Shown here piece by piece: positions 2,759 through 21,399 of a DNA stretch of 64,000 nucleotides (within the stretch, counting starts at the first letter, position 1; each line of letters starts with the position of its first letter). Source of the DNA: Minisyncoccota bacterium (GTDB lineage: Bacteria > Patescibacteriota > Minisyncoccia > JAHIHE01 > JAGLIN01); NCBI GenBank assembly GCA_041661265.1, contig JBAZUT010000003.1:15191-79190 (forward strand), in the 5' to 3' direction. Below the pieces are notes generated by a model, which saw only the letters and a list, made by a program, of their open reading frames with translations, did not search any database and was not told the DNA's origin. The translations under genes and the position numbers were made by a program.

Positions 2759-3175
2759 TTTAATTATATATTTTCCCTGACTGATTGTATTGCTGCGAAG
2801 AATGCAGTTGTTAGTGAAAATATAGCTGCACATTGAGATCGCGATGATTTCCCATAAAGAGATCGTTAAAAAATGGCGTCAATCAAGCCGGAGGTTTTGA
2901 GCGAAATGCTACTACAATTGCGTTTTGCGGCAGGAAATATCTTTCAAGAAAGAAGCTTTGAATTTTCAGAGCAACACCATGGATCCCGCAACAACCGAAT
3001 CAATCTCAATTGTTTTCAGCCGTCACTAATCAATGCGGGATATGAAGAATAAAAAAAATATCTTCATATCCCAATCTCTCCCTTGTTTTTTTAAAACAGA
3101 TTTCTGAACAGTGGGATCAGAAATTTGCGTTAAAAAGATCAAAACGCGGTAAATTAAAAAAAAGGAGGATAAAAA

Positions 3176-3322
3176 ATGGTGTATTTTGCACAGGACGAGT
3201 CCGTAATAAACGGAATAGTGGACTCAAAAAAGAGCGAAGCCGACAAAGACAAGTATGGATTGCGCGATGAGCAATTCGATGTCGCAAGAAACACTGGCAA
3301 GGCACAAGAGTTTGGGGAATAG
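3176..3322 (+). CDS. small hydrophilic protein (48 aa), paralog of the 3513 ORF
   Basis: Strong RBS AAGGAGG 7 nt upstream. N-terminus MVYFAQDES and a G-L-R-DEQ motif are shared with the 3513 ORF. Missing from the ORF track because it is under 60 aa. Confidence 0.4.
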   Translation: MVYFAQDESVINGIVDSKKSEADKDKYGLRDEQFDVARNTGKAQEFGE

Positions 3323-3512
3323 GACTAAATATTCCCCGCTCGTATTTTAGAAAGTTTGTTTTTGTCCGCATGAAGCGAGCAGAAATAAGCTCTATAAAAG
3401 ACGGGCTTAAACAGGATGATAAGCATGCCATCACGGCGCTTATACTTTCACGACTTGGAAAAAAAGCCAAGCACGGCAAGATCCTTGAAAATAATAGAAA
3501 AGAGGGAAAAAT

Positions 3513-3635
3513 ATGGTAAGTTTTGCAAAAGAAGGTTCAAAAATAACCGCGTTTGAAATAGAAAAAGAAAGCAGAGAGCGTTTTGGAAGAAAGGATGAGC
3601 AGAACATAAACGGTAATTTTGAAAGAGGAAATTAA
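3513..3635 (+). CDS. small hydrophilic protein (40 aa), paralog of the 3176 ORF
   Basis: RBS AGAGGGA. MVSFAKEGS...GRKDEQ aligns with the 3176 ORF. The ATG overlaps the stop of an upstream 49-aa ORF (3371-3519). Confidence 0.35.
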   Translation: MVSFAKEGSKITAFEIEKESRERFGRKDEQNINGNFERGN

Positions 3636-3655
3636 ATAAACCATATAAACAATAA

Positions 3656-3692
3656 GGGAAGCGGAAACTTGACCGCTTCCCGGCCATTTTTC
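3656..3692 (+). terminator. intrinsic terminator
   Basis: Perfect 9-bp stem gggaagcgg/ccgcttccc, then 'ggccatttttc'. Confidence 0.55.
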
Positions 3693-4050
3693 ATATGATC
3701 CCGTCCATGCTTATAAGGTTTACAGGCACTGACGGGCTTAAAATGAAAAGCCCTTACACAAATAAGAGAGGTTAAACAACTAAAAAAAGTTGGGTGCTAT
3801 CCGACCAACATTCGGAAAAAGTTCCTGCCTCTCTTATACCAATCATCTGCGTGATAATTGCGAACCTATCCCTGTTTTAATGATTTAAACCGGAGATAGG
3901 CTCACAAAGCCGAGAGTTGCGGGGCATGGCCAAACATGCCATGAAGAAGTGAAAGCACTTTATTTCTTAAGGGAATTATTTTCCGACCCCAGCTCTAAAC
4001 ACTGATAACATTCCGTTATCGAACAAAATAAACAGAAAGAGGAGATAAAC

Positions 4051-4215
4051 GTGGCAAATAAAGACAAAGCAAATGAAGACACCGGTAATACCGATGAGAG
4101 AAAAAATAAGATCGAACACAACAATGAGGTTCATGAGAAAATGAAAAATAAAGATGCCGCCGGAATAATCGGCGACAAGTTCGTGGATGATCACTATGTA
4201 CCGAGGTGCTATTGA
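4051..4215 (+). CDS. small K/N/E-rich protein (54 aa, GTG start)
   Basis: RBS AAGAGGAG 8 nt upstream of GTG. Followed by the terminator at 4215-4238 (gaggaca/tgtcctc plus T7). Confidence 0.35.
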   Translation: MANKDKANEDTGNTDERKNKIEHNNEVHEKMKNKDAAGIIGDKFVDDHYVPRCY

Positions 4216-4242
4216 GGACAAAATGTCCTCATTTTTTTATGC

Positions 4243-4270
4243 TTGACATTATTATAAAATGTATTATACT
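4243..4270 (+). promoter_or_regulatory. sigma70-like promoter for the leader and LeuA/CimA-family gene
   Basis: TTGACA(4243-4248)-16-TATACT(4265-4270). Confidence 0.45.
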
Positions 4271-4290
4271 GAAACAAGTTAATAAAAAAT

Positions 4291-4362
4291 ATGACCGGAA
4301 ATCATAATACAATCATCAGCATTATCATTAACCGCGGGGCTTTGTCCTGTCGGCTATTTTGA
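4291..4362 (+). CDS. putative isoleucine-rich attenuation leader peptide (23 aa: MTGNHNTIISIIINRGALSCRLF)
   Basis: Five Ile codons within six consecutive codons (atc atc agc att atc att). First ATG after an in-frame stop. Lies in the 200-nt leader of a branched-chain pathway gene. Confidence 0.4.
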   Translation: MTGNHNTIISIIINRGALSCRLF

Positions 4363-4390
4363 TGCAAAAAAAATAGCACACAAGATAAAG

Positions 4391-4416
4391 TCCCGGGAAA
4401 GCGCCCGGGATTTTAA
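4391..4416 (+). terminator. attenuator-type terminator in the leader
   Basis: Stem tcccggg/cccggga followed by 'ttttaaatt', about 30 nt after the leader stop and about 50 nt before the structural gene RBS. Confidence 0.4.
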
Positions 4417-4468
4417 ATTATCAAGAAATAAAAATAAATATCAGAACAAAAAAAGGAGGAATAGAACA

Positions 4469-5974
4469 TTGACATTTAGAAAAGAAATAAAAATTCTGGA
4501 CACAACGCTTAGAGACGGAGAACAGACTCCGGGAATATCATTCAGCAAGGAAAGCAAGATGGCCATTGCTGAAAATCTTGATCTGTTGGGAGTCGATGTC
4601 ATCGAGGTCGGATCTGTTATAACCTCGGAAGGCGAGCGGGAATTCGCGAAAGAGATCACTAAAAAGAAACGCGAAGGAAAAATAAAAGCCGAGCTTTGCA
4701 CATATTCCAGGATAAGGAAAGAAGATATCGACTATGCCAAAGAATGCGGTCTTGATTCCGTTCATCTTGTGGTTCCGGTTTCCGATCTGCATATAACTGA
4801 AAAGTTGAAGCAGGACAGGAAAACGGTCATGAATACGGCAATTGAAATGGTGAAGTACGCCAAATCTCTCGGGCTGACAGTCGAACTCAGCGGAGAAGAC
4901 GCTTCGCGCGCGGATATGGTATTCCTGAAGGAATTATATAATGCGGGAATAGACGCAGGCGCAGACAGGCTGTGTTTCTGCGATACTGTCGGTATTCTGA
5001 CTCCGGAAAGGACATACGAGATATTTCTTGAGCTTTCAAAGCTTCGCGCCCCGATCAGTATACATTGCCATAATGATTTCGGAATGGCAACGGCTAATAC
5101 TGTCGCGGCACTCCGGGCTGGAGCCGCACAGGCCCACGTAACGATCAACGGGATCGGAGAGCGCGCAGGAAACACTTCTCTTGAAGAGGTTGTAATGACT
5201 CTCTATTCTTTATATAAGAAAGAGACGAATATAAAGACGAGAAACCTGTATAAATCCTCAAGGCTTGTCAGCAGGCTTAGCGGGATACCCGTTGCTCTCA
5301 ATAAGGCGATAGTCGGCGGAAATTCGTTCACGCATGAAGCGGGAATACACGTGCATGGCCTGAAGGCGAACACTGCGACATACGAGCCGATCACGCCGGA
5401 GCTTGTCGGACGCGAAAGAAGGATCCTTCTTGGAAAGCATGCTGGCAGAGCATCTGTCGAACTCGCAATGAGGGAACTTGGACTTACCGCGGATGACAAG
5501 CAGATAAATGAGATAACAAAGCGGGTAAAGGAGGTTGGAGACAAAGGCAAGCGCGTAACTGATGCCGATTTCGAAAAGATCGCCGAAGTGGTGCTCGGCA
5601 TATACAAAGAAGCAAAAGTCAAGCTCGAAGAACTGACGGTCGTTTCCGGGAATACAGTGATGCCGACGGCGTCGATCAAGATCCGCGTGAACGGAAAGCA
5701 GATCGTCGAGGCCGGAGTCGGCACAGGTCCCGTAGATGCGGCAAGAAATGCATTGGAAAAGGCTCTGAGTGCGATCGGAGACATCCGGCTTGAGGAATAT
5801 CATGTGGATGCCATCGAAGGCGGCACTAATGCGTTGGTCGAGGTCTGGGTGAAACTCAGCAAAGACGGAAAAACCATAACGGCGAAAGGCGCCAGGACGG
5901 ATATTATCATGGCTTCAGTCGAAGCGATGCTGGAAGGCATAAACCGCCTTTTGAACGGCAAGAATAAAGAATAA
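4469..5974 (+). CDS. 2-isopropylmalate synthase / (R)-citramalate synthase family (LeuA/CimA), TTG start
   Basis: HMGL-like N-terminus 'ILDTTLRDGEQTPG' and 'HCHNDFGMATANTVAALRAGA', plus a C-terminal LeuA-dimerisation-like region. RBS AGGAGG. The Ile-rich leader favours CimA. Confidence 0.8.
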   Translation: MTFRKEIKILDTTLRDGEQTPGISFSKESKMAIAENLDLLGVDVIEVGSVITSEGEREFAKEITKKKREGKIKAELCTYSRIRKEDIDYAKECGLDSVHLVVPVSDLHITEKLKQDRKTVMNTAIEMVKYAKSLGLTVELSGEDASRADMVFLKELYNAGIDAGADRLCFCDTVGILTPERTYEIFLELSKLRAPISIHCHNDFGMATANTVAALRAGAAQAHVTINGIGERAGNTSLEEVVMTLYSLYKKETNIKTRNLYKSSRLVSRLSGIPVALNKAIVGGNSFTHEAGIHVHGLKANTATYEPITPELVGRERRILLGKHAGRASVELAMRELGLTADDKQINEITKRVKEVGDKGKRVTDADFEKIAEVVLGIYKEAKVKLEELTVVSGNTVMPTASIKIRVNGKQIVEAGVGTGPVDAARNALEKALSAIGDIRLEEYHVDAIEGGTNALVEVWVKLSKDGKTITAKGARTDIIMASVEAMLEGINRLLNGKNKE

Positions 5975-6062
5975 TAAAGAAATAGAGAGCTTAAACGTAA
6001 GCTCCTTTTTTATTTTCTCAAAAAGTGATATTCTTAGTGTGTGAATAATTAATCATAAAAAT

Positions 6063-7211
6063 ATGGAATTTTCCGATAGGGCGAAACAGATGAAGGGTTC
6101 GGCAACTTTGTTTTGGGATATGAAGGTGAAAGAGGCGATGAAGCTGGATGCAAGCGTCATAAATCTTACTATCGGCCAGCCCGATTTCGATACTCCGGAA
6201 TTTCTTTCGCAGGCGATAAGGGCGGTTTCAGGCAAGACAGGCGTGAACCGATATGCGAATACGCAGGGAGAGCCGGAGCTGAGAAAGATATTAGCCGATA
6301 TATTGAAACAAAAGAAGGACGTGGAATACGATGAAAGCGAGATTATCTGGACGAGCTCCAAGGAGGCCATATTTCTGGCTGTCTCGGTTCTTGTCGGAAA
6401 AGGCGATGAGGTGATCTTGCTGAGTCCATGCTGGCCGACCTATGGCGAAGTTGTGAATTATTGCGACGGCAAGGCTGTGTACGTCGGGACTGACCGGAAT
6501 TTTCATCCTGTTGCGGAAGAAATAGAAAAAGCCGTGAACGAAAGAACGAAAGTGATAATCATCAACAGTCCGAATAATCCGTCGGGCGCGGTATATGGGG
6601 AACAAGAGATCGCCAAGATCGCCAAGATCGCGAAGGATCACGATCTTATTGTGATCTCTGATGAAGTTTACAGCAGCATTTTGTTTGATGGCGGGAAGCA
6701 TATTTCGATCGCAAGACTTGAGGGAATGAAGGAGAGAACGATAATCATCGAGGGATTCAGCAAAGGCCTTTCGGTTCCGGGTTTCAGGGCGGGCTATGCG
6801 GCGGGAGCAAAGGAAATTATCGGGAAAATAAGGGACCTTAAGAGCAATATCTCCGGCAACAGCGATTCGCTTATGCAGTATGCCATAATTGATTCGCTTT
6901 CAAACGGCCTGGAAGCTTATTTTGAATTTGAAAAAAAGCTCAAGGAGTCTTTTGAGAAGAGAAGGAATTTTTTCATTTCACATCTCAGCATACCGGGATC
7001 GATCGCGGCGCAGGGAGCATTCTATCTGTTCGCTCCGATCCCATCGAAAGTGTCGGGTTCAATGGAGTTTTGCGGTACAATGCTGGAGAAGAAGATCGGC
7101 ATCACGCCGGGCATATTCTTTCAGAAAGAAGGATATGCCAGAATCTCGTTCGCCGTTAAAGAGGAAAAACTTAAAATTGCGGCTGATATATTGCAAAATG
7201 AGTACAGATAG
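6063..7211 (+). CDS. class I/II PLP-dependent aminotransferase (aspartate/aromatic aminotransferase-like)
   Basis: 'INSPNNPSGAVY' and the PLP-lysine motif 'FSKGLSVPGFRAGY'. Confidence 0.75.
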   Translation: MEFSDRAKQMKGSATLFWDMKVKEAMKLDASVINLTIGQPDFDTPEFLSQAIRAVSGKTGVNRYANTQGEPELRKILADILKQKKDVEYDESEIIWTSSKEAIFLAVSVLVGKGDEVILLSPCWPTYGEVVNYCDGKAVYVGTDRNFHPVAEEIEKAVNERTKVIIINSPNNPSGAVYGEQEIAKIAKIAKDHDLIVISDEVYSSILFDGGKHISIARLEGMKERTIIIEGFSKGLSVPGFRAGYAAGAKEIIGKIRDLKSNISGNSDSLMQYAIIDSLSNGLEAYFEFEKKLKESFEKRRNFFISHLSIPGSIAAQGAFYLFAPIPSKVSGSMEFCGTMLEKKIGITPGIFFQKEGYARISFAVKEEKLKIAADILQNEYR

Positions 7212-7266
7212 AGCAGTTTTGCCGGGTGCTATTGACACGCGATTTCAGTCATGGTAATCTGAACTC

Positions 7267-7416
7267 AGTAAATAATAATCGTTATATGATAACACTGAAA
7301 AACCAAGCAATCTGTTGTTGTTGCGCTTTCTAAGAAGGCTGGTTTTATAGTGTTATGTAAATTATAATAAGATTTAGATGATACTGTGAAGCTGGTCTTT
7401 TTGGACCGGTTTTTTA
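7267..7416 (+). ncRNA. candidate small RNA, copy C of the paralogous family (about 150 nt)
   Basis: Promoter TTGACA(7232-7237)-17-TAATCT. Core 'ctttctaagaaggctggttttatagtgttatg' is homologous to copy B 'ccttccaataagataggtcgttttgtgatgag'. Terminator ggtct/ggacc plus T6 at 7394-7415. Confidence 0.45.
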
Positions 7417-7447
7417 GTTGTGTACATTGAAAAAGAGGTGAACATAC

Positions 7448-7567
7448 ATGCAGGAAGATAATGATAAGATCAATAAAAACAAAAATAAACAGGAGAATGA
7501 AGACGGATCAAAAAAAGATCTGAGAAAAAGAAAAAGGGGTTCGATCGCAGGTCCCGGCGGATGCTAG
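7448..7567 (+). CDS. small K-rich peptide (39 aa), speculative
   Basis: RBS AGAGGTG, then MQEDNDKINKNKNKQENEDGSKKDLRKRKRGSIAGPGGC. Composition resembles the 4051 ORF. Confidence 0.2.
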   Translation: MQEDNDKINKNKNKQENEDGSKKDLRKRKRGSIAGPGGC

Positions 7568-7596
7568 GACCGCTGAATCCGTCGAAAGAAACGTTT

Positions 7597-7713
7597 GCCG
7601 AGGTGGCCGAGAAGGATAGGCGGACTTCGTCTTGCTGAAAAGCCAGACTATGTCCCGCCAAAGGCAGAAGACAGCAGATCTTCAAAACACAGGTTCGAAT
7701 CCTGTCCTTGGCT
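7597..7713 (+). other. tRNA-like element, non-canonical (117 nt). Canonical 3' half, Leu-like 5' half, about 45-nt insertion between them
   Basis: Exact T-arm acagg-TTCGAAT-cctgt (7689-7705). The 3' acceptor strand ccttggc pairs with gccgagg at 7597-7603, allowing one G.U. 'tg' (U8, G9) and a D-arm gcc-gagaaGGata-ggc follow, like tRNA-Leu 'GCCGAGGTGG'. A stem-loop gaaga-cagcaga-tcttc (7667-7683) sits five nt before the T-arm. Confidence 0.35.
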
Positions 7714-7760
7714 TTCGAATTATTATTCAGAAAAAATAAAAAACAAAGGAGAAGATAAAA

Positions 7761-8435
7761 GTGGACGAAAATAAAAACAAGATCATATCTGTTCTCAACA
7801 GCCGCGGTGTAAGAAGAGAACAGCTCGACAGTGAAACGTTAAAAGACATCGAAAACATAATTTCCGCATGCGGAACAGAACCGATCAAGCTGGTCGGATA
7901 TTGGGGGGTCGGTGAAAAGCAAGAACCGACCGAGATAGACCGCAAAGCCCTAGATAAATTATCCGATATAATGAAGATGACCGACGATCGGATCAAAGTG
8001 CATCTGATATTGGCGGATAAGCATGGCGAGTTCAATGGCTATGAAAATGATATTTATCTCAATAAGATATCTTCAATAGCCGGAGAAAGGAATATCAGTA
8101 CCGCATTTCTGAGCGCGATATATCATGAAGTGGGCCTGGATGCCGCGGATCTTACAAATGTAAGCGATGACATCTGGAATAAATTTCCGGAATGTTACAG
8201 GTGTATTATCGAGAAAAGAGCGGGAATACATCAAAAGAAATGCGAAGCATCCGAAGATGCGAAAAGATATCTGCACATGACGCAGGTTGAAAAACAGAAA
8301 ATCGGAGCAGTTTATCCGAACTGCATATGGTTCACATATGGAGACATCAAGAACCTGAAGGATCTTTTTCCCAGGCCGGTAATTTCGATCTGGCCGATCA
8401 AAAGAGGGAAATCGGTACTGCCATGGTTCAGCTAG
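7761..8435 (+). CDS. hypothetical protein (224 aa, GTG start)
   Basis: RBS AAGGAG. No recognisable family. Followed by the terminator gggtgag/ctcaccc plus T6 at 8437-8470. Confidence 0.5.
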   Translation: MDENKNKIISVLNSRGVRREQLDSETLKDIENIISACGTEPIKLVGYWGVGEKQEPTEIDRKALDKLSDIMKMTDDRIKVHLILADKHGEFNGYENDIYLNKISSIAGERNISTAFLSAIYHEVGLDAADLTNVSDDIWNKFPECYRCIIEKRAGIHQKKCEASEDAKRYLHMTQVEKQKIGAVYPNCIWFTYGDIKNLKDLFPRPVISIWPIKRGKSVLPWFS

Positions 8436-8539
8436 CGGGTGAGATATAAACCAAACTCACCCTTTTTTATTTTAAATTATCTGATATAATTAACGTAATG
8501 CATGAACGAGAATGCTTATAAATCAACTAATTCAATTTT

Positions 8540-9355
8540 ATGGAAACTGCAGTAAGCAAATCTGTCTGGTTAAATGAACTTACCTGGCAGGACGTCGCGG
8601 AATATTTAAAACGGGACGATATTCTTATTATTCCGGTAGGTTCGACCGAACAGCATGGTCCAGCCGCTCCGCTGGGTCTTGATACATACGCCGCGATCGC
8701 ATTGGCCGATGATGCGGCCAAGAGAGCGAATGTCCTCTCTGCGCCGCCTTTGTGGTTCGGAGATTCATCTCATCATTCTAAATTTCCCGGCACAATATCC
8801 ATAAGGAGCGAAACATTGACTGAACTTATGAAAGATATTCTCAGGAACGTCATAAAAAATGGATTTAAGAAAGTGTTGATCATCAATGGCCACAAGAGCG
8901 CCAATCTGCCGGGCTTGATCAGCGCTGCGAAATATGTCCATGAGTATGATCATCCGAAAAGTTTTATTGCGGTGATCGATCCGATGAAGATCGCAAAAGG
9001 GATCGCAGCAAAAACTAAGGAAGAACCGGAGCATCATGCAGGGGAGCTGGAAACATCGCATCTTATGTATAAGTATCCGAATCTTATAGATAAGGAAAAG
9101 CTTTCCAAGAATAATATCGATGCGGAAAAGATTTTTTCCAAGTTTTTCAGTTTCGATCTGTTTGGCGGAGGAAAGGATGTCATAGATATCGTATGGAATT
9201 CCAGCGAGCAGCGCGAGTTCACGCCTTCGGGCGCATTTTCCGCTTCAAATAGGGCCTCTGCCGAAAAAGGAAAAGCGTATCATGATTACATGGTCGATAA
9301 TATCGTTGAATTTATTGGATGGCTTAGAAAGTATAATGGGCCTATCGGCAGATAG
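8540..9355 (+). CDS. creatininase-family amidohydrolase
   Basis: 'IIPVGSTEQHGP' and the 'LIINGHKS' fold signature. Confidence 0.65.
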   Translation: METAVSKSVWLNELTWQDVAEYLKRDDILIIPVGSTEQHGPAAPLGLDTYAAIALADDAAKRANVLSAPPLWFGDSSHHSKFPGTISIRSETLTELMKDILRNVIKNGFKKVLIINGHKSANLPGLISAAKYVHEYDHPKSFIAVIDPMKIAKGIAAKTKEEPEHHAGELETSHLMYKYPNLIDKEKLSKNNIDAEKIFSKFFSFDLFGGGKDVIDIVWNSSEQREFTPSGAFSASNRASAEKGKAYHDYMVDNIVEFIGWLRKYNGPIGR

Positions 9356-9388
9356 CAGTTTTATATGGATCAGGATTAATGAAACACA

Positions 9389-10330
9389 ATGAAATCAATA
9401 GAGATCGTACGAAAACTCGCGAGTCTTTCTCCGAGGCAGTTCGCCGGAGAGAAGCTAGCGAAAAATTATATAATCAAGATGCTCAAAGGGAATTCTGTGG
9501 ATTACAGTCTGCAGAACTTTGAAGTTGCCGTTCCGTCGTATGCGAAATATCATCTGAAGGCGGACGGGAAGAGCATAAAATGCATACCGACATCATTGGT
9601 CGGAGGAACGGTAGGGGAAGGATGCGATATAATAAGCTCATTGGATGCTTCATATGAAGGCGGTACATGCGGTAATATAAATTATAATCCTCATTCAGAC
9701 GGCATCTCACTGGCTAATTTCTATGATTCGCCGTCCTTTGCGGTTTCGAGGAGGGATGTGAAATTTATCAAAAATGCCGCAAAGATCGAGGGGCTGATAA
9801 AGATCAAAAAGCGAAAATATACATCATGCAATATTCTTGCGGGAAACAGGATCGATTCCAAAAATATATTTTTCGCCCACTACGACTGCTTTTTTGAAGG
9901 AGCGGTCGACAATGCCAGCGGCGTGGCAGTTTGTATGAGCTTGGTTAAAAATAATAAAAATATACTGAAAGATAATCTTATTGTTTTTTGCGGTGCGGAA
10001 GAGCTTTCGTACGATAGGCCTTTCTATTGGGGAAAGTGTTTCAGAGCTTTTGAGTCTAGGAACAGGAGGATAATGAAAAACGCAAAGAAGGTTATAATCG
10101 TAGATTGCGTCGGAACGGATAATGCCGAGGTTAGGAACGACGAGGAAGCGGTGTCTTTGTACTTTGCAAAGAAAAATAATGATAAAAAGAAGGTACTCGT
10201 GGTAACGTCGGTAGAAAGAAGACCTGAAAAATTTATGAGCGTGTATCATAGCAAGGCGGATCGTGCGAGCTGCGTTCGTGAGAAATATCTGCAGAACGCT
10301 TTCGAAAAATGTTTAAGCATAATCGAATAA
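9389..10330 (+). CDS. M28/M20-type zinc peptidase-like protein
   Basis: 'FFAHYDC', then 'GAVDNASGVA', then 'GAEELS' (HxD...D...EE metal-ligand pattern). Confidence 0.5.
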   Translation: MKSIEIVRKLASLSPRQFAGEKLAKNYIIKMLKGNSVDYSLQNFEVAVPSYAKYHLKADGKSIKCIPTSLVGGTVGEGCDIISSLDASYEGGTCGNINYNPHSDGISLANFYDSPSFAVSRRDVKFIKNAAKIEGLIKIKKRKYTSCNILAGNRIDSKNIFFAHYDCFFEGAVDNASGVAVCMSLVKNNKNILKDNLIVFCGAEELSYDRPFYWGKCFRAFESRNRRIMKNAKKVIIVDCVGTDNAEVRNDEEAVSLYFAKKNNDKKKVLVVTSVERRPEKFMSVYHSKADRASCVREKYLQNAFEKCLSIIE

Positions 10331-10331
10331 T

Positions 10332-11435
10332 ATGATCGGGGAACTGCAAAAATTGATAAGATTTAAGACGGTTGTCGGAAATCACAAAGAGAACGGCAAG
10401 GCTTTGAAGTGGGTCAGATCCGAATTAGCCGGTCTGGATGTCGATGTGAGGGAATTCGAGTCGGATGGATATCGATCGATCGTCATTACGACGCAAAAGA
10501 CTATGAAGCCTAAAGTTTTTCTGGCGGCTCACATGGATGTTGCCAAGGCATCAAATGATCTGTTTATTCCCAGGATATCCGGCGATAAATTGTTTGGACG
10601 AGGCGCATATGATATGAAATTCGCGATCGCTTGTTATTTGAGGTTATTGAAGGAGTTGAAGAAAGATCTTTTGAAATATGATCTGGGAATCATGATCACA
10701 TCAGATGAAGAGTGTGGAGGGAAGAACGGGGCCGGATATCTTCTTGGTAAAGGATACGGATGCGACGCTGTTGTGCTTCCCGATGGAAGCGAGAATTGGA
10801 AAATTGAAAAAGCTTCGAAAGGCGTGTGGTGTTTTGTCGTAAAAAGCTATGGAAAGTCGGCTCATCCGTCTATGCCGTGGAAAGGTATAAATGCGATCGA
10901 AGCATTGCTGGATTATTTCAGCGAGCTGCAGAAACCGTTCAAAACGGAACCGTGCGGAGATCCGCTGCATATCCATTCAACGATCGATATAAATGAATTC
11001 AATACGGGCCGTACGGGGGATAATCTTCCGGATTATGCGGAAGCAATGGCCGATATCTTCTTCATAAGCGGGAAAGAATATGAAAAGATCGTCAGAATGG
11101 AAAAAAGCATCAGAAAGAAATATTCCGGAATAAAGCTCATGACGACTATTTATAATCCGAGCGTAAGGATAAATATAAAAAACAGATTTGCGGATGAATT
11201 TTACCGGATCGCGCGGAATCTGTATGGCATAAGGAAAGAGGCGATGTTTACCCATGGAACATCCGACGCTCATTATTTTGTGGAAAAGAATATATCGGTT
11301 ATTGAAACGCGGCCAAAGGGCGGTGATTTTCATGGCGATGGAGAATGGATAGATCTTGTTGATCTGGAAAGGTTCTATCAGGTCCTGAAAGAATTTACGG
11401 TAAGAATGTCCGCGGTGGATAATGAGAAGATTTGA
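10332..11435 (+). CDS. M20 family peptidase (ArgE/DapE-like deacylase)
   Basis: 'AAHMDVA', 'GRGAYDMK', 'SDEECGG'. Confidence 0.65.
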   Translation: MIGELQKLIRFKTVVGNHKENGKALKWVRSELAGLDVDVREFESDGYRSIVITTQKTMKPKVFLAAHMDVAKASNDLFIPRISGDKLFGRGAYDMKFAIACYLRLLKELKKDLLKYDLGIMITSDEECGGKNGAGYLLGKGYGCDAVVLPDGSENWKIEKASKGVWCFVVKSYGKSAHPSMPWKGINAIEALLDYFSELQKPFKTEPCGDPLHIHSTIDINEFNTGRTGDNLPDYAEAMADIFFISGKEYEKIVRMEKSIRKKYSGIKLMTTIYNPSVRINIKNRFADEFYRIARNLYGIRKEAMFTHGTSDAHYFVEKNISVIETRPKGGDFHGDGEWIDLVDLERFYQVLKEFTVRMSAVDNEKI

Positions 11436-11487
11436 CAATATATTAAAATAGATATAAATTGACAATATAGAACTATATATATGAAAA

Positions 11488-11603
11488 TACATTCAATAAA
11501 CAGCTATTTCTTTTATTTTAGCCTTCCAATAAGATAGGTCGTTTTGTGATGAGGATAAAATAAAGAAAAAAGCAAAATGGCCTATCGGGGGCTGTTTTTT
11601 GTT
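11488..11603 (+). ncRNA. candidate small RNA, copy B of the paralogous family (about 115 nt)
   Basis: Two TTGACA -35 elements at 11432 and 11459. Core 'atttcttttattttagccttccaataagataggtcgttttgtgatgagg' is about 75% identical to copy D. The 3' hairpin is followed by T6 at 11595-11600. Confidence 0.5.
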
Positions 11604-11706
11604 ATGACATTGAAAACATATTATCGGTTTTAATACGGCATAAAACCGATAAAGTGGGTTCAAATGGACCTTGATAATCAAATAATACAAAAAAGGAGGA
11701 AAGAAG

Positions 11707-11988
11707 ATGATAGCGGGAAAGCCCAAAGATGAGATCGATGAGATGATCTATGCACTTCGCGAGATCTGCCCGGACGTCGGAATAATAAGAAAAAATGGAA
11801 AAATTATTATGACGGGAAATGGGATCATGCGCGTAAAAAAAACAGTGAAGATATTATCCGGAATAGAGAGGATCGAATCCATCAATAAATATGGCACACG
11901 GTGCATACTTGAGATGAAGGGCGACGAGGCGATCATAATGAATGTTGCCAGCAATGAACGAAGTGAGGAATTATGCGTTATAGCGTAA
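11707..11988 (+). CDS. hypothetical small protein (93 aa)
   Basis: Strong RBS AAGGAGG. First gene of a 4-gene small-protein cassette. Confidence 0.5.
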   Translation: MIAGKPKDEIDEMIYALREICPDVGIIRKNGKIIMTGNGIMRVKKTVKILSGIERIESINKYGTRCILEMKGDEAIIMNVASNERSEELCVIA

Positions 11989-12278
11989 TGGATATTGAAG
12001 ACGAAACATCTGAGCTGGTGGCCATGAAGAGGTCTGGAAGCGATGATTCGGCAGACATTCTCTGCTGGAGGATCGGCCAGATGCTGCCGGAAATCGCTAT
12101 CGGCCCAATGACAAGAAATGACAGGATAATGTCGGTGTTACAGAAAGTTGAAACGGCGATATGCTTCTTGTCGGACTCAAAAAACAAAAAAAATCTTGAG
12201 ATCGTGATCCGGAATAAAAAAGAAGAAATAAAAAAATCGGAGAGCCAAAGGGAAAATTTGGCTCTCCCCAACTTTTAA
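11973..12278 (+). CDS. hypothetical small protein (101 aa)
   Basis: Start overlaps the end of the upstream gene by 16 nt, which suggests translational coupling. Confidence 0.45.
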   Translation: MRYSVMDIEDETSELVAMKRSGSDDSADILCWRIGQMLPEIAIGPMTRNDRIMSVLQKVETAICFLSDSKNKKNLEIVIRNKKEEIKKSESQRENLALPNF

Positions 12279-12412
12279 TTTGATATGTTCAGCCATGGAC
12301 ACGGTTTTGCATCAGACGAAAGCTTTTAAAAAAGTTTCTGCCTGCGGCAAAAGCGGCTTGCGGGATAAGGCGATTGTCTTATTGAATTGAAAAAATAAAA
12401 GGAGGAAGAAAA

Positions 12413-12715
12413 TTGAAGGAAAAATGGAGCATAAGCGAAGAAGAAAAGATGATAATAGGTATGATAAGTGTTTATCGAAAGCGGATGAAGAAGTCAAAAA
12501 CGACCGCTAAAATGCTTTATTGCAGAGACCAGATGGATCGAAAAAAGGCTGAACTTGGCAGGCTGAGATCAAGGATCAGAGCGGCCGACTCGGAGAATGA
12601 GAACAGAAAAAGAAACAGGAATTATCCTCCGATGACGGATACGCCGGACCACTGTTCGACCTGCGACCAGAAGCTGAATGATACGTGGAATTGTCTCGGC
12701 TATCCCTCTGCATAA
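12413..12715 (+). CDS. hypothetical basic protein with Cys-rich C-terminus (100 aa, TTG start or internal ATG)
   Basis: RBS AGGAGG. Basic KRMKKSK stretch and C-terminal 'DHCSTCDQKLNDTWNC'. Confidence 0.4.
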   Translation: MKEKWSISEEEKMIIGMISVYRKRMKKSKTTAKMLYCRDQMDRKKAELGRLRSRIRAADSENENRKRNRNYPPMTDTPDHCSTCDQKLNDTWNCLGYPSA

Positions 12716-12746
12716 TGAATGTGACGATCGAAGAAGGTGAGTCAAA

Positions 12747-13091
12747 ATGGACAATATGGAATTAATGCCGCAATGGGCGAAAAATAGAGCTCCGTATTGG
12801 ATAAATGGCGATGAATGTCCCGCGTGCAACGGAGCGAACTATAAGATCGAGGTGATCGAGTGCAATGAATACCTGAAAACAGTCGAGATTCGCGCATTGT
12901 GCGGCGATTGTGGGCACCGGGAAAATAAATGTATATCGGAATGTTGGACGGAATGGGAGATCTGCCCCAGATGCAAAAAGAAAAGCGATGTAGCGGAAAA
13001 CAGTATTCCCGGAGGAGGGAATATCGTGCTGGCAGTGTCTTTCATATCCCGATGTTCCCATTGCGGATTTGAAGAATCATTCGGCTATTGA
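12747..13091 (+). CDS. zinc-ribbon-rich protein (114 aa, at least four CxxC pairs)
   Basis: CPACN, CGDCGH, CPRCKK and CSHCG motifs. RBS GAAGGTGAG. Confidence 0.5.
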   Translation: MDNMELMPQWAKNRAPYWINGDECPACNGANYKIEVIECNEYLKTVEIRALCGDCGHRENKCISECWTEWEICPRCKKKSDVAENSIPGGGNIVLAVSFISRCSHCGFEESFGY

Positions 13092-13555
13092 AAACAAAGA
13101 CGTGGTACAAAAGGCAGGCTTCAGGCTTGCCTTATTTATTATAACAAAAACCACCGGCGTTAGCCGGTGTGTGCGTTTAGAGCGATAGCTCTTGTGTAAC
13201 TGTAATATAGTAATTGCCATATTATCATTCTAGGTCGTGTCATCCTGAACTTGTTTCAGGATCTTCGTTACATTTCGTAAGAGTGATGTAGTAAAGCAAT
13301 AACGAAATAAAACGAGGATTCCGGATCCCTCCGGAGGCGGGCAGGCAAGTCCGGAATGACAAACAGGCAGATAATCGATTAAGACAGATCAGAAACTACA
13401 TAAAAAACCAAGATGTAAACAGAGTTGAATTAGCACAACAGACGTTATGGAAAAAACAGGCATAGCCTGCCAAGCAGATACCCTCGGCGTCAAGCCGGGG
13501 GTATGTTCATTATTTTCGACATTGACACATGCCTGCATTGTGCTATAATGGCAAA

Positions 13556-13683
13556 GTAAGCTCAAATATCATGAAATACGGTATAAATAACAATTTCTTC
13601 TTTTTTAGCTATAACTTCCTTAAAAGATAGGTTATTTTGTGATAATTCAGATGAAAATAGCCTGTCGAAGAGGCTGTTTTTTA
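13556..13683 (+). ncRNA. candidate small RNA, copy D of the paralogous family (about 128 nt)
   Basis: Consensus promoter TTGACA(13522-13527)-16-TATAAT(13544-13549). Core 'atttcttcttttttagctataacttccttaaaagataggttattttgtgataa'. Terminator agcct/aggct plus T6 at 13659-13682. Confidence 0.55.
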
Positions 13684-13854
13684 ATGATATAAAGAACCAT
13701 TCAGTTTTCCACGCGATGGAAGATTGAATGGTAAGTTAAATCTTGCCAATGTGCGCCTCGGTGGCTGAAAAGAGCGCCGGCATGAAACACCGGAATATGC
13801 GGATCAAAATTCCGCCCGAGGCAAAAAAATTAAAAAAATACAGGAGGAACCGAA

Positions 13855-14541
13855 TTGATACAAGGTTTGAAGATTTTCAATGACCCGGAAAAGCTTCCTC
13901 AGGGCCCTAACGAGCAAGGATTGGCATTGCGGTCGGAACTCGTAAAGAAAATAACATGTTTTGTTTTGGGTCCCATGGGAACCAATATGGAACAGGCCTG
14001 CGAGCAATGGATTCGGGAGATGGGAATCGAAAACAAAACAGAAATTGTTCTTTGTTCGACCCCGGAAGAGTCGATCGAAAAAGCAAGAAGTGTTACCAGT
14101 GAGGGGCATGTTGCAACATTTTGGACATGCGCAGTCTATAATTGCCTGTGCAATGTTTTTTTCCAAAACCCGGATACGCTCACGTTCTTTGCGGAGAAGG
14201 TGATGATGCTGGATGAAATGCAGCTTGCGACGCGGCGTGAAAAGATACATGAGATCAGAGACGGGATCCTTCCCGATTCGTGGATCATTGCATCGCACCC
14301 CTCTCCGGCGCCCCTGCTCAATGAAGTAAAGTGCAGCGTCAAGCTGACTACAAGCAATGCCAAGGCGGCAGAATTGTGCAGTGCGCTCGAGGCGGATGCG
14401 TGCATTACGACAGAAAGCGCAAGAAAGCTGAATGGACTCGAAACACTCCATGTTTTTGGAAGCCCGAAAATGGTTTTTTTTGCGGGGATCACGACTCACG
14501 GAGTGAGGGTTGTTTCAAAGGCATATAATGAGGCGAAATAA
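13855..14541 (+). CDS. prephenate dehydratase-like (PDT-fold) protein without ACT domain. Possibly a prephenate decarboxylase-like paralog. TTG start
   Basis: RBS AGGAGG. 'CFVLGPMGTNMEQA' is a PDT N-terminal motif and 'IASHPSPAPL' follows. The TRF-type motif is degenerate. Confidence 0.45.
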   Translation: MIQGLKIFNDPEKLPQGPNEQGLALRSELVKKITCFVLGPMGTNMEQACEQWIREMGIENKTEIVLCSTPEESIEKARSVTSEGHVATFWTCAVYNCLCNVFFQNPDTLTFFAEKVMMLDEMQLATRREKIHEIRDGILPDSWIIASHPSPAPLLNEVKCSVKLTTSNAKAAELCSALEADACITTESARKLNGLETLHVFGSPKMVFFAGITTHGVRVVSKAYNEAK

Positions 14542-19390: not shown

Positions 19391-20485
19391 TTAATTTGCA
19401 ATAATATATCTCATCCCGCCAATATTTTTGACTTTACCTTTAATTTCCATCAGTGTCAATAAACTTGAAAGCGAGTTCATATTCATTTTAATGTTTTTTG
19501 AGAGCTGGTCAATGTGAGTGGCATTATCACGAGCCAGATTTTCCAGTATCAGTTTCTCGTCATCATTATCGGGAATTATATCTTTCAATTTCGATGCGTC
19601 AAGCGAAGTTTCAATGTCGAGCTCCTCAAGTATATCGCGGGGACGAGAAGCCAGTTTCGCTCCGAGCTTGATCAAATTGTTCGTACCGATCGAATTGCCG
19701 GAAAAAATACTGCCCGGAACCGCAAAAACATCTCTATTCTGTTCAAGTGAAAATTTGGCCGTTATAAGAGATCCGGAAGATTCAGATGCTTCGATAACAA
19801 GCACTCCTTTCGAGAGTCCGCTTATGATCCTGTTCCTTGCGGGAAAATGCTGTTTAAGCGGCGGGGTACCTATTGGGTATTCACTGATGAGGGCTCCAGA
19901 GCCGGAAATATCGCGCGCCAGCTTGCGATTGCTCAGGGGGTATATGCTTTTTTCGTCCAAGCCTCCTCCGAGAACTGCGATCGTACGTTTTTTTTGCTTC
20001 ACGCATTCAAGGTGAGCAACAGTATCTGCGCCGAAAGCAAGTCCGCTCACCAGAGTCAATCCGGATGCTGAAAGTTCCTTTGAGAGAAATGATGCGGCCT
20101 GAGTTCCATATGGCGAAAGCTTTCTTGATCCGACAACGGCAAGGCAGATGTCGCTATTGCTCAGAGAACCTTTTAGATATATCATGGCCGGACTGCTTGA
20201 TATTTCCAAAAGAAGATTTGGAAAGCGTTCATCCTTAAACGTCACCAGTTCTATGTTCTCTTCGGCAAGTTTTTCGTATTCTTTTTCCGGAGAGATATTC
20301 TTTTTGAAATCGATCATCCTCAGAACCGTTTTATTTTCGATGCCCGACGCCAGAAGATCATCAATGCCGGATCTCCAAGCATTTTCAAGAGATTTAAAAT
20401 GCGCCAGAAGCATTTTTAGTTTGGCCGGACCCATGAACGGCATGAGATTAAATGCGTTGTAATATTGACGCTCAGATATTGACAT
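19391..20485 (-). CDS. dprA: DNA processing protein DprA (Smf)
   Basis: Rossmann-like core 'LAVVGSRKLSPYG...VSGLAFGADTVAH...GLSKGVLVIEA'. The annotated start has no SD. Confidence 0.8.
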   Translation of the reverse strand: MSISERQYYNAFNLMPFMGPAKLKMLLAHFKSLENAWRSGIDDLLASGIENKTVLRMIDFKKNISPEKEYEKLAEENIELVTFKDERFPNLLLEISSSPAMIYLKGSLSNSDICLAVVGSRKLSPYGTQAASFLSKELSASGLTLVSGLAFGADTVAHLECVKQKKRTIAVLGGGLDEKSIYPLSNRKLARDISGSGALISEYPIGTPPLKQHFPARNRIISGLSKGVLVIEASESSGSLITAKFSLEQNRDVFAVPGSIFSGNSIGTNNLIKLGAKLASRPRDILEELDIETSLDASKLKDIIPDNDDEKLILENLARDNATHIDQLSKNIKMNMNSLSSLLTLMEIKGKVKNIGGMRYIIAN

Positions 20486-20507
20486 ATAAAATATAATATG
20501 CTATACT
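20479..20507 (+). promoter_or_regulatory. consensus sigma70-type promoter, antisense to the dprA start codon
   Basis: TTGACA(20479-20484)-17-TATACT(20502-20507). Confidence 0.45.
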
Positions 20508-20513
20508 GGGATG

Positions 20514-20888
20514 TTAATAAAAATCTGGAGGTTTTTTATTTTGCTGCATTTACAATCGGAAGCAACTAGGATTTTATGGGCGGCATTCTGTCTATGAGCT
20601 GTGAAAGCACAATAATCCCTCCTAATATTGTGCGAGTAGCTTAAGTCTAGGCATGTATTTCTTGTAAATACAGGCCTTACGCTTATAGGCAGTATGCCGG
20701 ATGTAAAAGATGGCAATGCCATGCACTTTTCTGTCTATGAGCGGCTATGATGCAACAATACCTCCTATAGTTGCATAACGGCCTAATGTTCAGGTCTTTA
20801 TTTCTTGTAAATACAGATCTTACGCTTATAGGCAGTAAAGTTTATGGCAGAAAACAGAAAAAGAAAGGGTCTCAGATCCTTTCTTTTA
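20514..20888 (+). ncRNA. candidate regulatory RNA of about 370 nt carrying the tandem repeats (strand uncertain)
   Basis: Bounded by the promoter at 20479-20507 and the bidirectional terminator at 20859-20888 (agaaagg/cctttct plus T). Loops read CCUCC on + and AGGAGG on -. Confidence 0.35.
20586..20871. repeat. two tandem direct repeats of about 143 nt (units start at 20586 and 20729)
   Basis: 'ttctgtctatgagc...cttgtaaatacag..cttacgcttataggcagta' is conserved in both units. Each unit holds a hairpin with CCTCC in the loop (20607-20633 and 20751-20775) and a gtattt/aaatac hairpin. Confidence 0.75.
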
Positions 20889-21399
20889 TATTGTCACGGA
20901 TCTTATCCGTAATTCCGTTTAAGATATCCGATTCGGCGGCCGATAAATTTGCGAGAACAAAATCTTCTGATGCCATATTGCCGCGGTCGGATTCTATGCC
21001 TATTCTGTATCGGGTGAAATCTTTTGTTCCAAGAGTATCGATTATCGATTGTATCCCTTTGTGACCTGCCGAGCTCCTGTCTTTTGTTACCTTAAATTCT
21101 CCGATCGCGATATCGAGCTCATCCTGGATCACCAACAGATCATTGTTCGATATTTTATAATAATCCATTGCCGATCTCACGGACGCGCCTGAACTGTTCA
21201 TAAATGTTTGCGGTTTCAGAAGCAACACCTTTTCGCCGCTTATGTTCCCGAAAGAAAGAAGCGCATTAAATTTTTTTTCGAATGCAAAGGGTTCAAAATT
21301 GAAAGATCCGGCTATTTTGTCGATCGCAATAAATCCCACGTTGTGCCTTGTTCGCTCGTATTCCTTTCCCGGATTGCCGAGGCCGACTATCAGTTTCAT
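20872..21399 (-). CDS. pth: peptidyl-tRNA hydrolase
   Basis: 'MKLIVGLGNPGKEYERTRHNVGF'. Confidence 0.9.
   Translation of the reverse strand: MKLIVGLGNPGKEYERTRHNVGFIAIDKIAGSFNFEPFAFEKKFNALLSFGNISGEKVLLLKPQTFMNSSGASVRSAMDYYKISNNDLLVIQDELDIAIGEFKVTKDRSSAGHKGIQSIIDTLGTKDFTRYRIGIESDRGNMASEDFVLANLSAAESDILNGITDKIRDNIKERI

Follow-up and report, generated by a model that had tools for sequence, protein, structure and literature searches.

What is encoded in the gap between pth and dprA in a 64,000-nucleotide (nt) stretch of a Minisyncoccota genome (contig JBAZUT010000003.1; the whole stretch is hereafter the window), where an inspection of the letters alone, the original prediction, had noticed tandem repeats with CCUCC hairpin loops, on which strand does it work, and does it act on its neighbours or elsewhere in the cell? 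Our analysis reveals that the repeats belong to a conserved structured RNA family of the Patescibacteria, the candidate phyla radiation (CPR), a group that accounts for much of bacterial diversity. The family lies on the + strand and is recognized by a covarying fold, an invariant exposed loop, promoter and terminator signals, and a fixed genomic position. The best explanation of the locus is a tandemly duplicated gene for an independently transcribed small structured RNA.

The unit of this family is a three-way junction, in which a closing helix, P1, of 12-20 base pairs (bp) holds together two hairpins: P2, with a purine-rich internal loop and an apical loop of 11-12 nt, and P3, whose length varies from ~15 to ~90 nt. 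The gap holds two such units in tandem on the + strand, spaced by 143 nt. Unit 1 (20582-20698) has the P1 helix GGCAU.CUGUCUAUGAGC / GCUUAUAGGCAG.AUGCC and covariance-model scores of 121 and 112 bits, and unit 2 (20718-20848) repeats its architecture with an extended P1 (GCCAU...AUGGC) and scores of 107 and 92 bits; the P1 core CUGUCUAUGAGC/GCUUAUAGGCAG is thus lengthened by flanking GGCAU/AUGCC in the first and GCCAU/AUGGC in the second. The arms of P2 are GCACAATA/TATTGTGC around CCCTCCT in unit 1 and TGCAAC/GTTGCA around ACCTCCT in unit 2; the two P2 helices differ by fully compensatory changes, and such changes occur in P3 too. Unit 1 carries the loop motif CCCUCCU (20617-20623) within the 11-nt P2 loop AAUCCCUCCUA, where it is unpaired in the minimum-energy fold, and unit 2 carries ACCUCCU (20760-20766), one change from the family consensus. 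Single-sequence folds reach -37.5 kcal/mol (z = -4.4) for unit 1 and -38.0 kcal/mol (z = -5.6) for unit 2.

At the DNA level, the direct repeats begin at 20586 and 20729 and share two matching blocks, one of 39 nt (74% identical) and one of 55 nt (84% identical). The window contains the 17-mer CTTACGCTTATAGGCAG at precisely two sites (0.08 occurrences expected by chance), and a search of the window found TTCTGTCTATGAGC confined to the two repeat units. Scanning 20300-21000 with the family model, filters off, returned exactly two copies and no third, degenerate one in the leader, where a 12-nt match to half of P3 is present. The repeats, hairpins, promoter and terminator of the original prediction all lie where it had placed them, with the small correction that the second hairpin of unit 2 begins with TTATTTC, not GTATTTC. 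Its notion of a two-repeat element needs sharpening: the functional unit is a single three-way-junction RNA of ~115 nt, which most relatives carry in single copy.

To place the units among related genomes, we scanned one genome per species with the DprA protein, which gave 80 loci. Plain MAFFT alignment of distant copies aligned P1 only. In its place we used a covariance model, first built on six close copies and later on 19; its E-values are rough, the calibration being short. The covariance models found 19-20 copies in 17 loci, which besides the window belong to 16 Patescibacteria genomes or metagenome contigs. The closest relatives (L002-L005, with DprA 56-60% identical to that of the window) have a single copy upstream of dprA; L006, L007, L008, L010, L011, L019 and L024 hold more diverged copies, and the model also detected copies in L052 and L054. 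A DNA-pattern scan of metagenome contigs, made independently of dprA, added L084, L085 (two copies), L087 and L091. As deposited, the taxon labels read Paceibacterota, Parcubacteria, Moraniibacteriota, Falkowbacteria, Buchananbacteria, Jacksonbacteria and "Saccharibacteria", with Pirellulales for L054. Many Patescibacteria dprA loci are devoid of the RNA, the dprA loci of Chloroflexota, Acidobacteriota and other non-Patescibacteria gave zero covariance-model matches, and two pattern scans of viral contigs found no copies.

Tandem pairs are also present in L085 (spacing ~137 nt), L008 and L011, where they recur independently. The two units of L085 are 75% identical, closer to each other than to any other copy, and those of the window are 71% identical, which is roughly how similar each is to copies from other species. 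Since they have diverged that far, the duplication in the window is either old or has diverged under selection, and is no recent accident. With strongly covarying copies in relatives, the homologue search also removes the option, raised at the outset, of a recent local duplication lacking structure conservation.

The fold is supported across the family. In the 19-sequence covariance alignment, standard pairs fill 91.3% of 653 pair cells, as against 36-45% in shifted-register controls, and 33 of the 36 pairs show changes on both sides; none of 500 shuffles reached the observed values. This alignment was fitted to the model and so favours the structure, which is why independent checks were run. 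When the copies were folded singly, 16 of 19 formed the closing stem and two hairpins, and 18 of 19 left the motif unpaired in a hairpin loop; the plain MAFFT alignment showed compensatory changes in 7 of the 12 P1 pairs. The covariation counts are biased toward structure, which counts against the proposed RNA, and the single folds together with the MAFFT-only P1 reduce this concern. Weaker conserved features include GAGC/GCU at the inner end of P1, UAAG between P2 and P3, and in many members a P2 internal loop of the GAA / (G)AGUA type.

The same alignment indicates the strand of the RNA. G.U cells number 77 and A.C cells 15, an excess that assigns it to the + strand, in antisense orientation relative to pth and dprA; P1 itself holds G.U pairs that become A.C mismatches when read from the other strand. 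Folding of the region agrees, with z = -6.7 for the + strand versus -4.6 for the minus strand. Thus the structured + strand RNA with its own promoter and terminator, one of two options left by the original prediction, is the one supported, and the region is non-coding, as had been proposed.

Within this variable scaffold, in which every helix changes, CCCUCCU in the P2 loop is the only long block that is invariant, or nearly so, in all homologues, which bears out the earlier emphasis on the CCUCC loops as the key feature. Its usual context is (R)AU-CCCUCCU-(W)A, and the loop as a whole resembles the 3' tail of 16S rRNA (GAUCACCUCCUUA). The sequences analysed include no 16S 3' end, and the reference for the comparison was that of E. 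coli, GGAUCACCUCCUUA. By this reference, the loops of L052 (GGGAUCCCUCCUUAA) and of L085 unit 2 (GUGAUCCCUCCUUAA) match at all but one position. The AU...UWA flanks carry the likeness past the CCUCC core into GAU and UUA, for 12-14 nt overall, and the A that precedes CCUCC in 16S rRNA is replaced by C in nearly all copies. Complementarity of the loop to Shine-Dalgarno (SD) sites is generic, 6-8 nt only. We also considered an internal pseudoknot partner for the loop and rejected it: the RNA has no conserved GGAGG, and the nearby AGG and GAGG belong to the P3 stem.

The address of the RNA is as constant as its loop. At every locus except L052 a lytR-pth-dprA-topA cluster harbours it between pth and dprA, and it runs on the other strand from those genes; the four loci recovered from the DNA pattern alone share this position. 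Among the 80 dprA loci, pth stands directly upstream of dprA in 19, and 12 of these 19 gaps contain the RNA; the remaining seven are short (59-366 nt), some with only a small open reading frame (ORF) for a membrane protein. L052 is the only RNA locus without pth-dprA adjacency, and there the RNA lies on the dprA strand and ends before dprA. In the window, dprA (19391-20485, minus strand; PF02481, E = 1.5e-70, and PF17782) is divergent from the RNA and pth (20872-21399, minus strand; PF01195, E = 1.5e-57) is convergent with it, both being conserved neighbours, and topA is situated beyond dprA. The RNA falls wholly inside the pth-dprA spacer and overlaps no coding sequence; whether it overlaps the dprA 5' untranslated region (UTR) depends on the position of the dprA promoter.

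Transcription signals accompany the RNA throughout. The window promoter, TTGACA-17-(TG)TATACT at 20479-20507 (+), agrees with the consensus at 11 of 12 positions and has the TG extension. Every locus shows a TTGAC(A/T) -35 element with 16-18-nt spacing on the RNA strand, most with an extended TG -10, and the -10 element precedes the RNA by 20-90 nt in most loci. The overlap of the promoter with the dprA start, part of the original prediction, holds in the window, where the -35 hexamer overlaps the dprA ATG (20485-20483 on the other strand), and only some lineages keep it: L002, L003 and L005 share the arrangement, and a distance of 70 to >600 nt separates the promoter from the dprA start in L004, L006, L008, L010, L011, L054 and L085. 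On the minus strand, a promoter-like site TTAACA-16-TATATT (20490-20517), ending 4 nt ahead of the dprA ATG, overlaps the RNA promoter; the dprA mRNA may be leaderless or near-leaderless, with its promoter competing with that of the RNA. A predicted 5' leader (20514-20581, +), whose start we place ~7 nt past the -10 element, contains GGAGG at 20527-20531 and a mini-ORF (GGAGG-N9-TTG, 18 codons), rejected as coding since it is not conserved in relatives; their leaders have in common a (G)AGGUUUUUU-like stretch and no ORF. The leader of L084, upstream of 8347 (-), has a ~200-nt insertion between promoter and RNA with a long inverted repeat, gtccccctgataaggggg ... cccccttatcagggggaac, which resembles a miniature mobile element.

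What follows the RNA is far less uniform. A separate terminator is found in the window, L003, L087, L008, L010 and L011. That of the window (20859-20888) is a bidirectional intrinsic terminator common to the RNA (+) and pth (-), with the pth stop codon inside it; its 14-nt arms (20859-20872 and 20874-20887) are 93% complementary and form a stem of 13 bp, after which comes UUUUAUAUU; each strand has a U-run. A simple terminator scan did not list this hairpin because of its loop and GC rules, and L003 and L087 have the same bidirectional arrangement. In L006, L007, L019 and L052 a U-tract directly follows an extended P1, and L024 and L054 have the RNA at the head of an operon with three tRNA genes. 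In L054, a GC-rich, structured-looking stretch of ~180 nt (1930-2110, -) separates the RNA from the tRNA genes in this apparent operon and has no Rfam match at E <= 5. Finally, L002, L004, L006, L007, L019 and L085 have a small ORF after the RNA; these ORFs are unrelated to one another, and each has a strong ribosome-binding site (RBS). In L002 (2640-2710, -) and L004 (2590-2650, -) the 5' UTRs of these ORFs share a hairpin, AAGAAGAAAAU...UCCUUCUU, just before the strong SD, which could be a second conserved cis element masking or flanking the RBS. L015 and L026 (2700-3010, -) lack the RNA, and a promoter at the matching position by the dprA start drives a small two-transmembrane ORF; in L006, L007 and L019 the RNA is placed between that promoter and a similar small ORF.

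What might such an RNA do? The reading that we tentatively favour, without giving it better than even chances, is that the RNA presents an anti-SD loop in trans, which would pair with AGGAGG(G) ribosome-binding sites. The near-consensus promoter would drive a primary transcript of ~380 nt, from 20514 to ~20892, ending at the bidirectional terminator and carrying two units of ~115-130 nt. The rigid scaffold would hold the P2 loop (R)AU-CCCUCCU-(W)A single-stranded as the working part, and this loop would act as a free anti-SD in trans, pairing with AGGAGG(G) sites and competing with 30S subunits for those mRNAs, a minority, whose translation requires an SD; two tandem copies would double the dose or valency. 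Expression, the integrity of the transcript or its processing into units, and the pairing of loop and RBS are all things that we infer here. The gene content of the window fits a selective effect: only a minority of its genes have AAAGGAGGA sites, and pth, dprA, topA and most long ORFs are A/T-rich upstream and have no SD, so a free anti-SD would act on a subset of genes. The SD-type genes include a run at ~3100-14100 (+) with AAAGGAGGA-N7-start sites (starts at 3176, 4469, 11707, 12413 and 13855), and lytR, like pth, dprA and topA, has an A/T-rich upstream region and no SD. Judged from these upstream regions, two modes of translation initiation seem to coexist in the genome, and the block at ~3100-14100 may be an acquired island.

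Several points weigh against a free anti-SD acting in trans. A seven-base loop offers little specificity, no individual mRNA showed extended complementarity to it, and the strong SD sites of the window are AGGAGGA, although AGGAGGG would suit the loop better. The near-consensus, apparently constitutive promoter, the co-transcription with tRNAs and the elaborate scaffold fit a housekeeping RNA-protein complex better. Moreover, a role in trans leaves the strict pth-dprA position unexplained.

The strongest competitor is such a complex, a protein decoy in which the loop mimics the 16S 3' tail to titrate or deliver a tail-binding protein. The candidates are the KH domain of Era, which is reported to bind AUCACCUCC of 16S rRNA, bS21 or bS18, IF3, and a 3'-end maturation nuclease such as YbeY. 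The likeness of the loop to the 16S tail past CCUCC into GAU and UUA points this way, as do the conserved and elaborate scaffold with an AGUA/GAA-type P2 internal loop in several members, the near-consensus promoter, and the tRNA co-transcription in L024 and L054. However, no protein gene co-varies with the RNA besides its pth, dprA and topA neighbours, and the replacement of the A ahead of CCUCC by C in nearly all copies departs from the 16S sequence; we consider the decoy unlikely, if worth keeping in mind. A broader form of the idea, to which we give slightly less credence still, is that nature has here produced an RNA mimic of the 16S 3' tail that soaks up either SD-led mRNAs or a tail-binding factor (Era, bS21 or YbeY). 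In mostly SD-less genomes, SD-led mRNAs such as those of horizontally acquired and phage genes would be selectively soaked up by a tail copy made in large amounts, and an RNA decoy would set ribosome specificity or 30S maturation.

The fixed address instead speaks for a local role, in which cis-antisense pairing or promoter interference would insulate dprA from pth read-through, or would repress dprA by occlusion or antisense pairing. This would account directly for the position: the RNA occupies 12 of the 19 pth-dprA gaps among the 80 dprA loci, only one locus with the RNA lacks the adjacency, the four loci found by DNA pattern alone are all at pth-dprA, the window, L002, L003 and L005 have a -35 element that overlaps the dprA ATG, and the dprA promoter-like site TTAACA-16-TATATT overlaps the RNA promoter. 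Yet an antisense RNA has its complementarity for free and would need neither the invariant loop nor the covarying fold, the promoter stands 70 to >600 nt off the dprA start in the seven loci named above, the L052 RNA is on the dprA strand and stops before dprA, and bidirectional terminators halt pth transcripts short of the RNA region. Taken together, these observations make a purely local role improbable.

Still more doubtful is a cis-acting 5' leader, in which the anti-SD loop would mask the RBS of a downstream small ORF in riboswitch-like fashion. The six loci with small strong-SD ORFs after the RNA (L002, L004, L006, L007, L019 and L085) are compatible with it, the L085 sequence AAGGAGGG is complementary to the loop and would pair with it over 8 nt, and L015 and L026 retain the promoter and small ORF without the RNA. 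Against this, the window copy has no downstream ORF and is followed by a terminator and then the convergent pth, other copies precede terminators or tRNAs, the downstream ORFs are mutually unrelated, and the length and stability of P1 are not those of a helix that switches. On similar grounds, a riboswitch or cis-regulatory leader was rejected as a class because downstream contents vary between a terminator with a convergent gene, tRNAs and unrelated small ORFs, and a type I toxin-antitoxin leader was rejected because L006, L007 and L019 alone have a small two-transmembrane ORF after the RNA and the window has none.

Last, the minus-strand element offered in the original prediction, whose AGGAGG(G) loops (read as UAGGAGGGAUU) in the pth-dprA mRNA spacer would serve as a decoy RBS or as CsrA-type GGA sites, is very improbable: the loops do resemble SD sites and A(N)GGA motifs and the minus strand does fold better than shuffled sequence (z = -4.6), but this reading turns the 77 G.U cells into A.C mismatches and lowers pairing from 91% to 82%, the promoters, present in every lineage, and the U-tracts are conserved on the + strand, and the terminator separates pth from the element.

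What is new here is a well-supported structured RNA family with a covariance model, a fixed address in the pth-dprA gap and a defined loop site, and our literature search turned up no earlier account of any regulatory or housekeeping RNA that is peculiar to the Patescibacteria. If the loop does act as a free anti-SD or as a tail decoy, it would represent a new way of tuning translation initiation or 30S maturation, set in reduced genomes with mixed SD use. Even an ordinary base-pairing small RNA (sRNA) would, if that is what it is, provide a first handle on post-transcriptional control in the Patescibacteria, and the hypotheses are directly testable.

We then compared the family with known RNAs. 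At the gathering threshold, the 4227 models of Rfam 15 found only one tRNA in the window, at 7597-7713, and in 20400-20950 at E <= 10 they gave only chance matches of 14-22 bits, against thresholds of 33-128 bits. The 13 homologous loci returned tRNAs only, and L054 1900-2330 nothing relevant. The tRNA match (7597-7713, +; 43.7 bits) has a 47-nt insertion in the D-arm region, and ARAGORN found no tRNA or tmRNA anywhere in the window; the tRNA gene may contain an intron or be unusual in some other way. Full-text searches and a check of the 224-motif paper (PMC5737381) yielded no description of the RNA. Because of the tRNA-operon context we considered 5S, signal recognition particle (SRP), 6S and RNase P RNA, none of which has Rfam support; their signature sequences are presumably absent as well.

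Of these, 5S rRNA is similar in architecture: it too measures ~115-120 nt, pairs its 5' and 3' ends to close a three-way junction, has a purine-rich internal loop in one arm and is at times transcribed with tRNAs. It differs in that the RNA described here has no RF00001 match (E <= 10 in 20400-20950; gathering threshold in the 13 loci), none of the conserved 5S blocks and a reversed arm order, its P3 ranges from ~15 to ~90 nt, and many dprA loci of Patescibacteria do without it. Antisense RNAs encoded in cis (CopA, Sok, RNAI) are similar in lying opposite a conserved gene junction, with a strong constitutive-type promoter and exposed-loop stem-loops. In contrast to them, the loop here stays invariant even though DprA identity to the window protein is down to 42-60% in the lineages concerned, the RNA is clear of coding regions, and the orientation in L052 is opposite.

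The decoys 6S RNA, which mimics an open promoter, and CsrB/RsmZ, of which CsrB mimics CsrA sites, offer a conceptual parallel: an abundant stable RNA (for the present family a presumed property) exposes a conserved single-stranded feature that imitates the natural ligand of a machine, and in CsrB, as in our tandem copies, repeated units raise capacity. Unlike 6S RNA, the present RNA has no 6S-like central bubble, and the thing imitated would be the 16S 3' tail, for which we know of no described natural RNA mimic. CsrB/RsmZ sponges need GGA loops on the transcribed strand, and here the GGA loops lie on the minus strand.

The greatest overlap is with the sRNAs that have C/U-rich loops: RsaE/RoxS, Listeria LhrC1-5 and the streptococcal csRNAs. 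These too are stand-alone small genes with their own promoter and terminator, they combine covarying helices with a conserved C/U-rich motif in an unpaired loop (18 of 19 folds here), their predicted action is at ribosome-binding sites, and LhrC and csRNA genes are multi-copy or tandem. They differ in sequence and model, with no Rfam match at E <= 10, and in build, being a row of hairpins where the present RNA forms a three-way junction that a terminal helix of 12-20 bp closes. They display UCCC or CCCC motifs, whereas each unit here has one motif that copies the 16S tail over 12-14 nt, and the fixed genomic position and the Patescibacteria hosts set the new family further apart. By this comparison, the family most resembles RsaE/RoxS, LhrC and the csRNAs in probable function and the 6S and CsrB mimics in concept, and is a member of none of them.

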